This document shows positions 5,806-13,197 of a stretch of 64,000 nucleotides of DNA, piece after piece (within the stretch, counting starts at the first letter, position 1; every line of letters starts with the position of its first letter). The translations under genes and the position numbers were made by a program. The notes below the pieces were generated by a model, which made no database searches, was not told the DNA's origin, and saw only the letters and a program-made list of their open reading frames with translations. Where the stretch lies: the NCBI RefSeq assembly GCF_056746865.1, contig NZ_CM163382.1; one strand, written 5' to 3'.

Positions 5806-5841
5806 GTAGGCCGGATAAGGCGTTAACGCCGCATCCGGCAT
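5806..5841. repeat. REP-like palindromic unit (gtaggccggataaggcgttaacgccgcatccggcat)
   Basis: characteristic enterobacterial REP motif GCCGGATAAGGCG...GCATCCGGC between convergent genes. Confidence 0.6.
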
Positions 5842-5913: not shown

Positions 5914-8670
5914 TTACCCGAGAATTTTGCTGGCTTCGCGCGCTACATTATCCATCTCGTCCAACAGTTCCAGCAGCTCCGGCTCCAAATCTTCTTCTTT
6001 AGTACCGCTACGTAGCTGTTGTTCGATCAGTTGGCAGAGATTCTTCATACGCGGCACACCGCTATAGCCGCAACTGCCATGCAGTTTATGAATCAAATCA
6101 ACCAGGCCTTCCGGGTTTTCTCCAACCAGCTGTTCCTCAACTTTGTTGCGAACTTCAGGCAGGAAATCGAGTAACATTTGCAGCATATCGCGCGCTAAAT
6201 CGGTTTTTCCTGCTGCCTGGCGTAGTGCCAGTTGCCAGTCGAGGGTCGCATTCGGGTTCACCACAATTTCGTTGACTTCGGGCGTCACGACGCGAGAGGA
6301 AATACCGCTGCCAGGCTTGTAGCGCAACAGCAAATTATGCAATCGTTCTTCTTCAATCGGTTTCGCCAGATAATCGCTCATCCCTGCGCCAAGCAGCTTC
6401 TCTTTTTGCCCGGCCATTGCATGCGCCGTTACCGCGATAACTGGCGTTTGTTGCTGATGGGGGAGCTGGTGGATGAGTTCGCAGGCCCGAATGCCGTCCA
6501 TGTCCGGCATTTGAATATCCATTAAGATCAAATCGAACGGCATCTGTTTCGCCCGTTCAACCGCCTGATGCCCGCTATCGCAAAGTTCCACATGTTGCAC
6601 CATATCTTCCAGCAATGCGCCGATAAGTTTCAGGTTAGCGGGGTTGTCATCAACCGCCATGACTGTCATTGCCAGCTTACTTTCATCGGTTACAGGCAAA
6701 AGCGTGTTTTGTTTGTGATGACAAAATTCCGTCAGGGCAGGTAACAGGCGCGTAGGTGTTAATGGTTTCAGCAGACACGCGCCGATACCATCTTGCTTAA
6801 GTTTTTCAGCATTGACTTGTGCATGGCAAGGAAGTGCCAGCATCAGAAAATCGGTCATCGATACCGCTTTCGCTAATCGCTCATGTTGCATTGTTAGCGG
6901 CTCGCGGAAGGTCACCGCAATGCCTAATAACATCATGTCGTAATGCGCGGGAGGCAGCGCGGAGAACGTTGGGCTATAAACCACTTCCAGCGGCGTTTCA
7001 CTTAAAATATCCAGCGTGCATTGCGCTGCTGCGGAGTTTGGTTCGACATAGGCCAGGCGCTTGCCGGCGAGGCATTGGGTGGATGGCCCTTCGATAATAA
7101 TGTTCGGATTCAGATCGAGATTAATGTGGAACCAGAAAGTTGAACCGCGATTCGGCTGGCTATGGAACGAAATATCGCCGCCCATTTCATTAACCAGTTT
7201 TTGTGTAATCACCAGCCCCAGCCCGGTGCCACCATGACGGCGGGAAATACTGGCATCAGCCTGTCGGAAGGCCTGGAATAAGCGCGATTGATCGCGTTCC
7301 GGAATACCAATGCCGGTATCCCGAATCTGCACTTCAATCTGCACTTTGGTATTACTCAGCGCACGTTTTTCTACCAGAATATCAATGTTGCCATTCTCGG
7401 TGAATTTAATTGCATTCCCTACCAGGTTAGTGATGATTTGCTGTAATCGTAGTGGGTCGCCGATAACGTTATCAGGCACGTCGCTTTTAATATTGAGCGT
7501 CAGTTCCAGCCCTTTATCGTGAGAAGAATGTGCCAGCAGGGTAACGACTTCATCCAGCGTGCTGCGTAGTGGGAATGGAATACTTTCCAGAATCAGCTTA
7601 CCTGCTTCCAGTTTCGAGAAGTCGAGAACATCATTAATAATTGCCAGCAAATTATTTGCCGAACGTTCAATCGTATTCAGGTGATCGCGCTGCGTTGGTG
7701 TTAATTCTGTTTTCAGCGTCAGGCGGGTAAAGCCAATAACACCATTCAGTGGTGTACGCAGTTCGTGTGACATATTTGCCAGAAACTCGGATTTAATACG
7801 CGCCGCTTCCTGGGCGCGCTTTTTCGCCAGATCCAACTCAACGTTCTGAATTTCCATCTGCTCCAGCGTTTCACGCAGATCGGACGTCGCCTGGTCGATA
7901 TTGTGCTGCATCTCTTCGTGATAAGCAGCCAGCGACATTGCCATCGAGTTGATACCGTTTTTCAGCATATCCAGCTCACCAAGCATAAATCCTTCCACCC
8001 GGCTGTCGAGTTGCCCGCGACGGATGCGGTCGACGGTATTCACCATGTTGCGAATCGGACCGGTTACATCGCGCATTAAGCGCCAGCCAAAAATAAGCGC
8101 AATACCGATACAAAACAGCATCATCACGCTGGAAATAAAGATCTCTTTATATTGCTGCAAGCGAACCGATTTAAGATCCAGCTCCAGCGCAATATATCCC
8201 AGCATATTTTGACTATTTTTGGCATCGCTACTGGGCGATTCGTCGGGGGAGTAACTCTCAGAAATAATCGGCGTGCGGAGGATCATAATATCGCCGTCAC
8301 GAGTGACAGTGAGCTGGCGAGGAAACGGCACGTTGCTGCCGAGCTGCATTGATGAGGGATCAAGATGAAAATTGGAAGTGACAAAGAGTCGGTTATTTTC
8401 ATCATAAACCGAAATCGCGCGAACAATATCGGAATGGCGACGATGCAGTACGCTTATTAACTGACCGATAGATTCGCGATTTTGCAGGCTCATGCCATAT
8501 TCAGTAGAAACTGCAAGCGGCTCAATAATGCTGGCTCCGGCATCTTCCAGTTGACGCTGCAAGTCGTTATAGCGATGCACAACGAAAAAGATACTCAGCA
8601 ATAAACCAATAAGGACGGTCGGTGCCAGGATCAGAATCATCATGCGTGCGCGCAGGCTGTAGTTGGTCAT
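5914..8670 (-). CDS. barA: hybrid sensor histidine kinase BarA
   Basis: 918-aa ORF; N-terminal TM segments, HAMP, HisKA (H-box [10 protein letters not shown]), HATPase, receiver and Hpt regions. Confidence 0.95.
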
Positions 8671-10075: not shown

Positions 10076-12310
10076 ATGGTTGCGGTAAGAAGTGCACATA
10101 TCAATAAGGCTGGTGAATTTGATCCGGAAAAATGGATCGCAAGTCTGGGTATTACCAGCCAGAAGTCGTGTGAGTGCTTAGCCGAAACCTGGGCGTATTG
10201 TCTGCAACAGACGCAGGGGCATCCGGATGCCAGTCTGTTATTGTGGCGTGGTGTTGAGATGGTGGAGATCCTCTCGACATTAAGTATGGACATTGACACG
10301 CTGCGGGCGGCGCTGCTGTTCCCTCTGGCGGATGCCAACGTAGTCAGCGAAGATGTGCTGCGTGAGAGCGTCGGTAAGTCGGTCGTTAACCTTATTCACG
10401 GCGTGCGTGATATGGCGGCGATCCGCCAGCTGAAAGCGACGCATACCGATTCTGTTTCCTCCGAGCAGGTCGATAACGTTCGCCGGATGTTATTGGCGAT
10501 GGTCGATGATTTTCGCTGCGTGGTCATCAAACTGGCAGAGCGTATTGCTCATCTGCGCGAAGTAAAAGACGCGCCGGAAGATGAACGCGTACTGGCGGCA
10601 AAAGAGTGCACCAATATCTACGCGCCGTTGGCGAACCGTCTTGGGATTGGACAACTGAAATGGGAGCTGGAAGATTACTGCTTCCGTTATCTCCACCCGA
10701 CCGAATACAAACGCATCGCAAAACTGCTGCATGAACGCCGTCTCGACCGCGAACACTATATCGAAGAGTTTGTCGGCCATCTGCGCGCTGAGATGAAAGC
10801 TGAAGGCGTTAAAGCTGAAGTGTATGGTCGACCGAAACACATCTACAGCATCTGGCGCAAAATGCAGAAAAAGAACCTCGCCTTCGATGAGCTGTTTGAT
10901 GTGCGTGCGGTACGTATTGTCGCCGAGCGTTTACAGGATTGTTATGCCGCACTGGGGATAGTGCACACTCACTATCGCCACCTGCCGGATGAGTTTGACG
11001 ATTACGTCGCTAACCCGAAACCAAACGGTTATCAGTCTATTCATACCGTGGTTCTGGGGCCGGGTGGAAAAACCGTTGAGATCCAAATCCGCACCAAACA
11101 GATGCATGAAGATGCAGAGTTGGGGGTTGCTGCGCACTGGAAATATAAAGAAGGCGCGGCAGCTGGCGGCGCACGTTCGGGACATGAAGACCGAATTGCC
11201 TGGCTGCGTAAACTGATTGCGTGGCAGGAAGAGATGGCTGATTCCGGCGAAATGCTCGACGAAGTACGCAGCCAGGTCTTTGACGACCGGGTGTACGTCT
11301 TTACGCCGAAAGGTGACGTCGTTGATTTGCCTGCGGGATCAACGCCGCTGGACTTCGCTTACCACATCCACAGTGATGTCGGGCACCGCTGCATCGGGGC
11401 AAAAATTGGCGGGCGCATTGTGCCGTTCACCTACCAGCTGCAGATGGGCGACCAGATTGAAATTATCACCCAGAAACAGCCGAACCCCAGCCGTGACTGG
11501 TTAAACCCAAACCTCGGTTACGTCACAACCAGCCGTGGGCGTTCGAAAATTCACGCCTGGTTCCGTAAACAGGACCGTGACAAAAACATTCTGGCTGGGC
11601 GGCAAATCCTTGACGACGAGCTGGAACATCTGGGGATCAGCCTGAAAGAAGCAGAAAAACATCTGCTGCCGCGTTACAACTTCAATGATGTCGACGAGTT
11701 GCTGGCGGCGATTGGTGGCGGGGATATCCGTCTCAATCAGATGGTGAACTTCCTGCAATCGCAATTTAATAAGCCGAGTGCCGAAGAGCAGGATGCCGCC
11801 GCGCTGAAGCAACTTCAGCAAAAAAGCTATACGCCGCAAAACCGCAGTAAAGATAACGGTCGTGTGGTGGTTGAAGGTGTCGGTAACCTGATGCACCACA
11901 TCGCGCGCTGCTGCCAGCCGATTCCTGGAGATGAGATTGTCGGCTTCATTACCCAGGGACGCGGTATTTCAGTACACCGCGCCGATTGCGAACAACTGGC
12001 GGAACTGCGCTCCCATGCGCCAGAACGTATTGTTGATGCGGTATGGGGCGAGAGCTACTCCGCCGGATATTCGCTGGTGGTCCGCGTGGTGGCTAATGAT
12101 CGTAGTGGGTTGTTACGTGATATCACGACCATTCTCGCCAACGAGAAGGTGAACGTACTTGGCGTTGCCAGCCGTAGCGACACCAAACAGCAACTGGCGA
12201 CCATCGACATGACCATTGAGATTTACAACCTGCAAGTGCTGGGCCGCGTGCTGGGTAAACTCAACCAGGTGCCGGATGTTATCGACGCGCGTCGGTTGCA
12301 CGGGAGTTAG
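10076..12310 (+). CDS. relA: GTP pyrophosphokinase RelA ((p)ppGpp synthetase I)
   Basis: 744-aa ORF with RelA/SpoT synthetase, TGS and ACT regions; matches recalled E. coli RelA. Confidence 0.95.
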   Translation: MVAVRSAHINKAGEFDPEKWIASLGITSQKSCECLAETWAYCLQQTQGHPDASLLLWRGVEMVEILSTLSMDIDTLRAALLFPLADANVVSEDVLRESVGKSVVNLIHGVRDMAAIRQLKATHTDSVSSEQVDNVRRMLLAMVDDFRCVVIKLAERIAHLREVKDAPEDERVLAAKECTNIYAPLANRLGIGQLKWELEDYCFRYLHPTEYKRIAKLLHERRLDREHYIEEFVGHLRAEMKAEGVKAEVYGRPKHIYSIWRKMQKKNLAFDELFDVRAVRIVAERLQDCYAALGIVHTHYRHLPDEFDDYVANPKPNGYQSIHTVVLGPGGKTVEIQIRTKQMHEDAELGVAAHWKYKEGAAAGGARSGHEDRIAWLRKLIAWQEEMADSGEMLDEVRSQVFDDRVYVFTPKGDVVDLPAGSTPLDFAYHIHSDVGHRCIGAKIGGRIVPFTYQLQMGDQIEIITQKQPNPSRDWLNPNLGYVTTSRGRSKIHAWFRKQDRDKNILAGRQILDDELEHLGISLKEAEKHLLPRYNFNDVDELLAAIGGGDIRLNQMVNFLQSQFNKPSAEEQDAAALKQLQQKSYTPQNRSKDNGRVVVEGVGNLMHHIARCCQPIPGDEIVGFITQGRGISVHRADCEQLAELRSHAPERIVDAVWGESYSAGYSLVVRVVANDRSGLLRDITTILANEKVNVLGVASRSDTKQQLATIDMTIEIYNLQVLGRVLGKLNQVPDVIDARRLHGS

Positions 12311-12405
12311 TCTTACATAGCTGGATATGGCGTCAGCCGTATCCAGCGATATCTTTTACTCGAAGGTATTACACCTGACAGACCCGCAATTTTCAGGACA
12401 TTCTA

Positions 12406-13197
12406 ATGAATCAAATCGACCGTTTGCTCACTATTATGCAGCGCCTGCGCGATCCGGAAAACGGCTGCCCGTGGGATAAAGAGCAGACATTTGCCACCAT
12501 TGCGCCTTACACCCTTGAAGAAACCTACGAGGTGCTGGACGCCATCGCCCGTGAAGATTTTGACGATCTTCGCGGTGAACTGGGCGATCTGCTGTTCCAG
12601 GTGGTGTTTTACGCACAAATGGCTCAGGAAGAAGGGCGCTTTGACTTTAATGATATATGCGCCGCGATCAGCGATAAATTAGAACGTCGCCATCCGCATG
12701 TTTTTGCTGACAGTTCTGCCGAAAATAGTAGTGAAGTGCTTGCCCGTTGGGAGCAAATCAAAACCGAAGAGCGCGCGCAGAAAGCGCAGCATTCGGCGCT
12801 GGACGATATTCCTCGTAGTTTACCGGCTTTAATGCGTGCGCAAAAAATCCAGAAACGTTGCGCCAACGTTGGTTTTGACTGGACGACGCTTGGTCCGGTA
12901 GTCGATAAAGTCTACGAAGAGATCGACGAGGTGATGTACGAGGCACGGCAGGCTGTTATCGACCAGGCTAAACTGGAGGAGGAAATGGGCGACCTGCTGT
13001 TTGCCACGGTCAATCTGGCTCGTCATTTAGGGACAAAAGCGGAAATCGCATTGCAAAAAGCGAACGAAAAATTCGAGCGTCGTTTTCGCGAAGTGGAGCG
13101 TATTGTTGCCGCGCGTGGACTGGAAATGACAGGTGTTGACCTCGAAACAATGGAAGAAGTCTGGCAACAGGTAAAACGGCAGGAAATTGATCTCTAA
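12406..13197 (+). CDS. mazG: nucleoside triphosphate pyrophosphohydrolase MazG
   Basis: 263-aa ORF with tandem MazG EE..E motifs; starts only 95 bp after relA stop. Confidence 0.9.
   Translation: MNQIDRLLTIMQRLRDPENGCPWDKEQTFATIAPYTLEETYEVLDAIAREDFDDLRGELGDLLFQVVFYAQMAQEEGRFDFNDICAAISDKLERRHPHVFADSSAENSSEVLARWEQIKTEERAQKAQHSALDDIPRSLPALMRAQKIQKRCANVGFDWTTLGPVVDKVYEEIDEVMYEARQAVIDQAKLEEEMGDLLFATVNLARHLGTKAEIALQKANEKFERRFREVERIVAARGLEMTGVDLETMEEVWQQVKRQEIDL

Follow-up and report, generated by a model that had tools for sequence, protein, structure and literature searches.

In the K-12 strain MG1655, the genes relA, mazE, mazF and mazG are annotated in this order, together with an antisense RNA (aMEF). 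The locus analyzed here raises the question of what stands between relA and mazG when this toxin-antitoxin (TA) pair is missing, and of how such an arrangement relates to that of K-12. It lies in a stretch of 64 kb (hereafter the window), in the gene context barA, rlmD, relA, mazG, pyrG and eno. The region is 100% identical to that of Escherichia coli 118UI, which was isolated from urine in Mexico City. A sequence-only reading of the window had given the K-12 gene order, correctly, and had proposed that relA is followed directly by mazG without mazEF. The features of the junction are the following:

10076-12310, + strand: relA, GTP diphosphokinase, 744 aa (open reading frame list; NF008124 equivalog, 1678 bits, full length; PGAP annotation of 118UI)
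12308-12310, + strand: relA stop codon TAG
12311-12405, + strand: relA-mazG intergenic region of 95 bp without mazE or mazF (sequence; open reading frames; negative tblastn; no Rfam match)
12311-12362, + strand: segment of about 52 bp specific to the mazEF-free allele (pairwise alignment to K-12; 85-bp query)
12320-12347, + strand: palindrome, probably REP-derived, with a 12-bp stem (12320-12331/12336-12347) and a 4-nt loop (GTCA)
12348-12357, + strand: post-stem tail GATATCTTTT, T-rich, with the T run not at its start
12348-12370, + strand: weaker second hairpin, the 5' arm of which is the tail GATATCTTTT
12363-12405, + strand: mazG leader common to both alleles (alignments to K-12, E. albertii and other empty alleles; sequence)
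12395-12398, + strand: Shine-Dalgarno sequence AGGA, 7 nt ahead of the mazG ATG
12406-13197, + strand: mazG, nucleoside triphosphate pyrophosphohydrolase, 263 aa (TIGR00444, 419 bits; NF007113, 370 bits; PGAP)

It is plain from these features that RelA and MazG are intact and that the locus makes no MazE or MazF. The open reading frames of the window, its sequence and tblastn all agree on the direct succession of relA and mazG, and the distance between the relA stop and the mazG start is exactly the 95 bp that had been claimed. The K-12 proteins MazE (best E = 1.0) and MazF (best E = 3.1) gave no tblastn match in the 64-kb window. Downstream of relA, positions 12311-12405 contain no open reading frame for the ~82-aa antitoxin MazE (AbrB/MazE fold), and no mazF open reading frame (PemK/MazF endoribonuclease, about 111 aa) overlapping a mazE stop is present in the window. 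The PGAP annotation of 118UI has the same relA and mazG coding sequences with none in between, and an Rfam scan of 12200-12500 with E-values up to 1 returned no match. The promoter/operator palindrome of mazE after the relA stop is absent as well, the window sequence TCTTACATAGCTGG... being dissimilar to GCCGAAATTTGCTCGTATCTACAATGTAGATTG... of K-12. The statement that the gap contains no open reading frame holds for real genes but not literally: one frame of 50 aa (12327-12479) starts in it, the only one of at least 20 aa to do so. We rejected this frame as a gene; it enters mazG out of frame, matches no NCBIfam model, and its ATG sits in an arm of the hairpin and is ACG in the empty allele of the Escherichia strain SCPM-O-B-8794 (L003). 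Another frame of 34 aa with a TTG start (12216-12320) exits the 3' end of relA and merely touches the gap.

Alignment of the interval with K-12 and other E. coli, which the sequence-only reading had suggested as a check, places mazEF in K-12 and not in the window. Window and K-12 have orthologous relA and mazG genes, the DNA of the flanks being 97.5-98% identical, and apart from a few SNPs they also share the final ~32 bp of the mazG leader, Shine-Dalgarno sequence included. The alignment to K-12 shows identity up to the relA stop plus one base and is then lost. Similarity is back at ~12363-12374, diverged over 12363-12373 and solid from CCTGACAG (12374) onward. The K-12 counterpart of 12311-12362 comprises ~690 bp, containing the mazE P2/P3 promoter/operator, mazE, mazF, the antisense aMEF locus and ~30 bp of downstream sequence, whereas the window has a segment of ~52 bp with a REP-like hairpin. 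Because these ~52 bp are specific to the allele and consist mostly of what appears to be a degenerate REP palindrome, the window junction is not a clean excision from the K-12 sequence.

The inverted repeat described in the gap by the sequence-only reading is real but longer than stated. It begins 9 bp past the relA stop and consists of GCTGGATATGGC, the loop GTCA and GCCGTATCCAGC, with 11 Watson-Crick pairs and one G-U pair. The 106-nt stretch 12305-12410 folds at -33.9 kcal/mol, whereas dinucleotide shuffles give -19.0 +/- 2.7 kcal/mol (z = -5.5) and none of 200 reaches the native value. When the relA-mazG gaps of different species are aligned, the palindrome falls on canonical REPs (GTAGGCCGGATAAGGCG...CGCCGCATCCGGC) that occupy the corresponding position in E. 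albertii and several Citrobacter species, and its local alignment to the E. albertii REP has a score of 31 that none of 2000 shuffles reached. It also agrees with a canonical REP elsewhere in the window (5810-5839) at 23 of 28 positions by manual count. Like REP/BIME elements, it is an extragenic imperfect palindrome, here of ~28 bp, past a stop codon; unlike them, it has GCTGGATA instead of GCCGGATA, a head ATAG instead of GTAG, and a shortened loop. The head tetranucleotide GTAG/CTAC, which reads ATAG in the window, is GTAG in SCPM-O-B-8794, whose empty allele also has GCCGGATA and is thus nearer to the REP consensus. Judged from this comparison of ATAG with GTAG, the window palindrome is a degenerate, i.e., decayed, REP. 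This variant occurs as a single copy in the 64 kb, even with three mismatches allowed. With the pattern used, one canonical REP was found in the window; this perfect copy (GCCGGATAAGGCGTTAACGCCGCATCCGGC, 5810-5839) is located just below the low-coordinate end of an open reading frame of 918 aa on the - strand (5914-8670). Across seven empty alleles, all 84 pair cells of the stem pair, with one compensatory change (UA to CG) and four wobble changes, although 75 of 500 shuffles are as good and seven sequences are too few for the pattern to be statistically significant.

The distribution of this junction was determined among 5,426 complete E. coli genomes, of which 5,425 contain the relA/mazG region. 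An 85-bp query across the empty junction, which has no match in mazEF-bearing genomes, matched 1,006 genomes (18.5%), with one match per genome, all full-length and all chromosomal. The K-12 mazEF segment matches 4,419 genomes. Since 1,006 and 4,419 add up to 5,425, the two alleles behave as mutually exclusive. A repeated mazEF search by blastn with 11-base words, reaching down to ~65-70% identity, still gave 4,419 genomes, hence no diverged mazEF copy is hidden in genomes with an empty junction. The seven plasmid matches to mazEF are all in genomes already counted. The counts argue, at the level of DNA similarity, that genomes with an empty junction lack the TA genes; for 118UI, the absence of mazEF elsewhere in the genome is based on these population counts, and the search covers mazEF DNA down to the identity given above, MazF-family paralogues below ~65% DNA identity (chpB, pemK) being outside it. 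A search of the rest of the genome for mazEF, suggested alongside the alignment, is answered to the same extent: in genomes of this kind, no mazEF copy at another site is apparent.

The empty allele is carried by, among others, CFT073, ATCC 25922, uk_P46212 (ST131) and a strain of APEC O78:H4. The junctions of CFT073 and ST131 differ from that of the window by one or two bases in the first 84 positions of the 85-bp query. On the other hand, mazEF is present in some B2 strains, namely UPEC 536 and, according to the literature, NRG857c, so the distribution is not simply phylogenetic. The empty allele is a lineage-level trait that is concentrated in extraintestinal pathogenic lineages and is not strictly phylogroup-defining. 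TA content thus does differ between strains, as had been proposed, but the difference is better described as a two-allele polymorphism between lineages than as a strain-level one. The relA stop codon was considered as a marker of the allele and rejected. It is TAG in the window, K-12, 536, E. albertii and the APEC O78:H4 strain (empty), and TAA in SCPM-O-B-8794, E69 (L004), 2017-02-2CC, CFT073 (empty) and ST131 (empty); it is a free SNP and silent on the direction of change. At the 92 sites in the flanks where the window and K-12 differ, both 536 (B2, with mazEF) and 2017-02-2CC (empty) are mosaic and give no guide to the direction of change, and no clear recombination tract next to the junction was seen at these sites in the two strains. 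Three mazEF-positive genomes have partial coverage of the cassette. In one of them, E. coli SW07163 (NZ_CM129852.1, ~1018132-1019050), the locus gives two separate matches and the alignment is limited to the mazF half, an indication of a disrupted or rearranged mazE.

We are highly confident that the window carries a mazEF-free allele, one of two segregating in E. coli, and the same counts bear on two other explanations. The mazEF pair might have been relocated to a chromosomal or plasmid site outside the window, given that the direct view covers 64 kb only and that plasmids and islands can carry toxins of the MazF family. This is very improbable, as empty and mazEF-positive genomes together account for every genome with the locus, the search with 11-base words adds no genome, and the seven plasmid matches are in genomes already counted. 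A collapse or mis-join during assembly or sequencing that dropped ~690 bp has nothing more in its favor than being a general possibility, and it is hardly credible: 1,006 independent complete genomes and two divergent Escherichia records have this junction in full length, and it has 52 bp of its own, beyond what a collapse could create.

To see which state is found outside E. coli, the neighborhoods of mazG were compared in 80 GTDB species representatives ranging from Escherichia to Moellerella, including Citrobacter, Salmonella, Klebsiella, Enterobacter, Pantoea, Erwinia and Pectobacterium; the type genomes of E. fergusonii, E. marmotae, E. ruysiae and E. whittamii were not identified among these loci. 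relA is located upstream of mazG in 79 of the 80 representatives, and in none of the 79 with both genes in the fetched stretch is MazE or MazF encoded between them. The gap measures 43-421 bp in 76 of the 79. Over the sequences compared, the direct neighborhood of relA and mazG without mazEF is shown to be the rule across Enterobacterales.

Two of the representatives, SCPM-O-B-8794 and E69, are titled Escherichia coli and have the same 95-bp empty allele with the palindrome and the leader. Their identity to the window is 92.8% and 96.6%, respectively, in relA and 95.5% in mazG-pyrG, well below the within-species values of 97.5-98.6% in this analysis; they are therefore probably cryptic Escherichia clades filed as E. 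coli. Relatives of MazF with ~72% amino-acid identity are encoded on plasmids of Pantoea, Rahnella, Brenneria, Citrobacter and Providencia, in keeping with a mobile origin. One further record in PLSDB (NZ_OL790696.1), a "plasmid" of 4.8 Mb with a 98% MazF match and no gene listed, is almost certainly an E. coli chromosome misfiled as a plasmid.

Some loci of this comparison have larger gaps. In Buttiauxella agrestis ATCC 33320 (L042, 1841-3428), the relA-mazG gap is ~1.8 kb long and contains three co-directional open reading frames, encoding Hcp (PF05638, E = 2e-20), a DUF4225 protein (E = 1e-46) and a hydrophobic protein of 109 aa. The set resembles an Hcp-effector-immunity cassette of type VI secretion and suggests that the relA-mazG site receives other small toxin/immunity modules too. 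The gap of two Superficieibacter species (L016 and L018) is ~950 bp long. A hydrophobic open reading frame of 112 aa in the first of them (L016, 3066-3404) is weakly similar to the Buttiauxella 109-aa frame (29% over 94 aa, E = 0.003) and is possibly an orphan immunity gene. Klebsiella spallanzanii SB6411 (L032) is the sole locus of the 80 without a relA C-terminus within 3.5 kb upstream of mazG; the site may have been rearranged there or have taken up a larger insertion.

As the outgroups are without mazEF, SCPM-O-B-8794 and E69 are empty, REPs occupy the same position in other species and relatives of MazF are found on plasmids, we consider it likely that the empty site is ancestral and that the mazEF cassette of ~690 bp is a later insertion within Escherichia that took the place of the REP segment and was spread or lost by recombination. 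The mazEF-free allele of the window consists of relA, 9 bp, the degenerate REP palindrome, and the conserved mazG leader with its ribosome-binding site. The cassette would have been inserted with its own promoter and operator into an ancestral relA-REP-mazG arrangement, displacing the REP segment, and recombination through the flanking genes would then have spread or removed it.

The main competing account is a secondary loss, in which the ancestor of the lineage had relA-mazEF-mazG, the cassette was deleted or replaced by a REP, and the 95-bp gap is the scar. Its best argument comes from an outgroup of E. coli, E. albertii NBRC 107761 (L005, 3240-3500), whose relA-mazG gap of 264 bp contains a scar of the mazEF cassette. 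The gap starts with a remnant of the K-12 mazE operator region (AAATTTGTTCGTGTCTACAAGTAGATTGA versus AAATTTGCTCGTATCTACAATGTAGATTGA); at its other end, 14 nt from the 3' end of mazF (GGAATTACAACTCA) are joined to cassette downstream sequence, a fusion that corresponds to a deletion between two AACTCA repeats; two REPs (BIME) stand in place of mazE and mazF, flanked by these remnants. The cassette was therefore once present in E. albertii and is old in the genus, where it has been lost at least once. In addition, the window sequence AAGGTATTACA (12363-12373) resembles the mazF 3' remnant of E. albertii (AAGGAATTACA) at the corresponding place, and the REPs of the window and E. albertii share an unusual ...ATCCAGC end. 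We did not adopt AAGGTATTACA as a scar of the mazF 3' end, however. The 11-nt match is not significant (131 of 2000 shuffles as good for E. albertii, p ~0.07; 830 of 2000 for K-12, p ~0.4), and the same bases are explained equally well as a diverged continuation of the right flank (CAGGT-TTCCA in K-12). There is, moreover, no trace of the mazE promoter/operator beside the relA stop, the compact allele is also present in the divergent SCPM-O-B-8794 and E69, and REPs occupy the same intergenic position in Citrobacter, in which mazEF was never seen at this locus. A secondary loss is accordingly rated as unlikely, and "never inserted" probably fits the window better than "lost," although the direction of change in its lineage is not proven.

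The arrangement also bears on how mazG would be expressed. relA and mazG are both on the + strand, 95 bp apart, and none of the positions from 11900 to 12600 resembles a sigma-70 promoter. Given that no such promoter lies in the gap and that the AGGA leader is conserved, read-through from relA would be the simplest route for mazG transcription in the empty allele, as the literature has it for strains without mazEF (PMC7167474). The REP hairpin might then set the ratio of relA to mazG, either as a partial terminator or by stabilizing the 3' end of the RNA. In K-12, in contrast, the autoregulated mazEF promoter lies upstream of mazG. A consensus scan found the palindrome as the single terminator-like match in 11900-12600, with 0.7 expected by chance. 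Seven of the 12 stem pairs are G-C; in the tail GAUAUCUUUU, four U follow only after six nt. Given this poor U-tract, a function as intrinsic terminator is uncertain, and the hairpin may, by analogy with other REPs, terminate transcription in part or stabilize the relA mRNA by blocking 3' exonucleases. That it is a maintained attenuator or RNA stabilizer setting the amount of mazG per relA transcript, rather than decaying junk, appears doubtful. If it were true, the mazEF insertion would have replaced the hairpin and put mazG under an autoregulated TA promoter, and the difference between the two alleles would extend beyond toxin content to MazG and (p)ppGpp homeostasis.

That relA and mazG are separated by mazEF in some E. 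coli and not in others is already described, and the allele of the window is common and ordinary. relA-mazG forms an undisturbed bicistronic operon in many strains without these TA systems, e.g., UTI89, and the insertion of TA genes is probably independent of the functions of the operons (Fraikin, Goormaghtigh, Van Melderen 2020, PMC7167474). The classic relA-adjacent mazF is not encoded by CFT073 (Bustamante et al. 2020, PMC7232551), and MazF is listed as absent from this strain in Table 2 of an earlier survey (Van Melderen and Saavedra De Bast 2009, PMC2654758). The window is like the UTI89/CFT073 arrangement (PMC7167474) in locus, gene order and lack of mazEF, and nothing substantive separates them, the relA stop of the window being TAG instead of TAA and the leader having a few SNPs. 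A comparable case is dinB-yafN-yafO-yafP versus dinB-yafP, in which a type II TA pair likewise lies inside a host operon in some E. coli only (PMC7167474), but at another locus and with another TA family.

What is added here are the allele counts (18.5% of 5,426 genomes empty, the two alleles being mutually exclusive), the exact breakpoints, the probable identity of the palindrome as a decayed REP, and comparative evidence for the empty state as the general enterobacterial condition. In the literature, the polymorphism serves as an argument for regarding chromosomal TA modules as accessory, mobile insertions rather than components of the stringent-response operon. MazEF-dependent phenotypes of K-12 are consequently not transferable to large ExPEC lineages (ST131, ST73 and others), which have no MazF from this locus.
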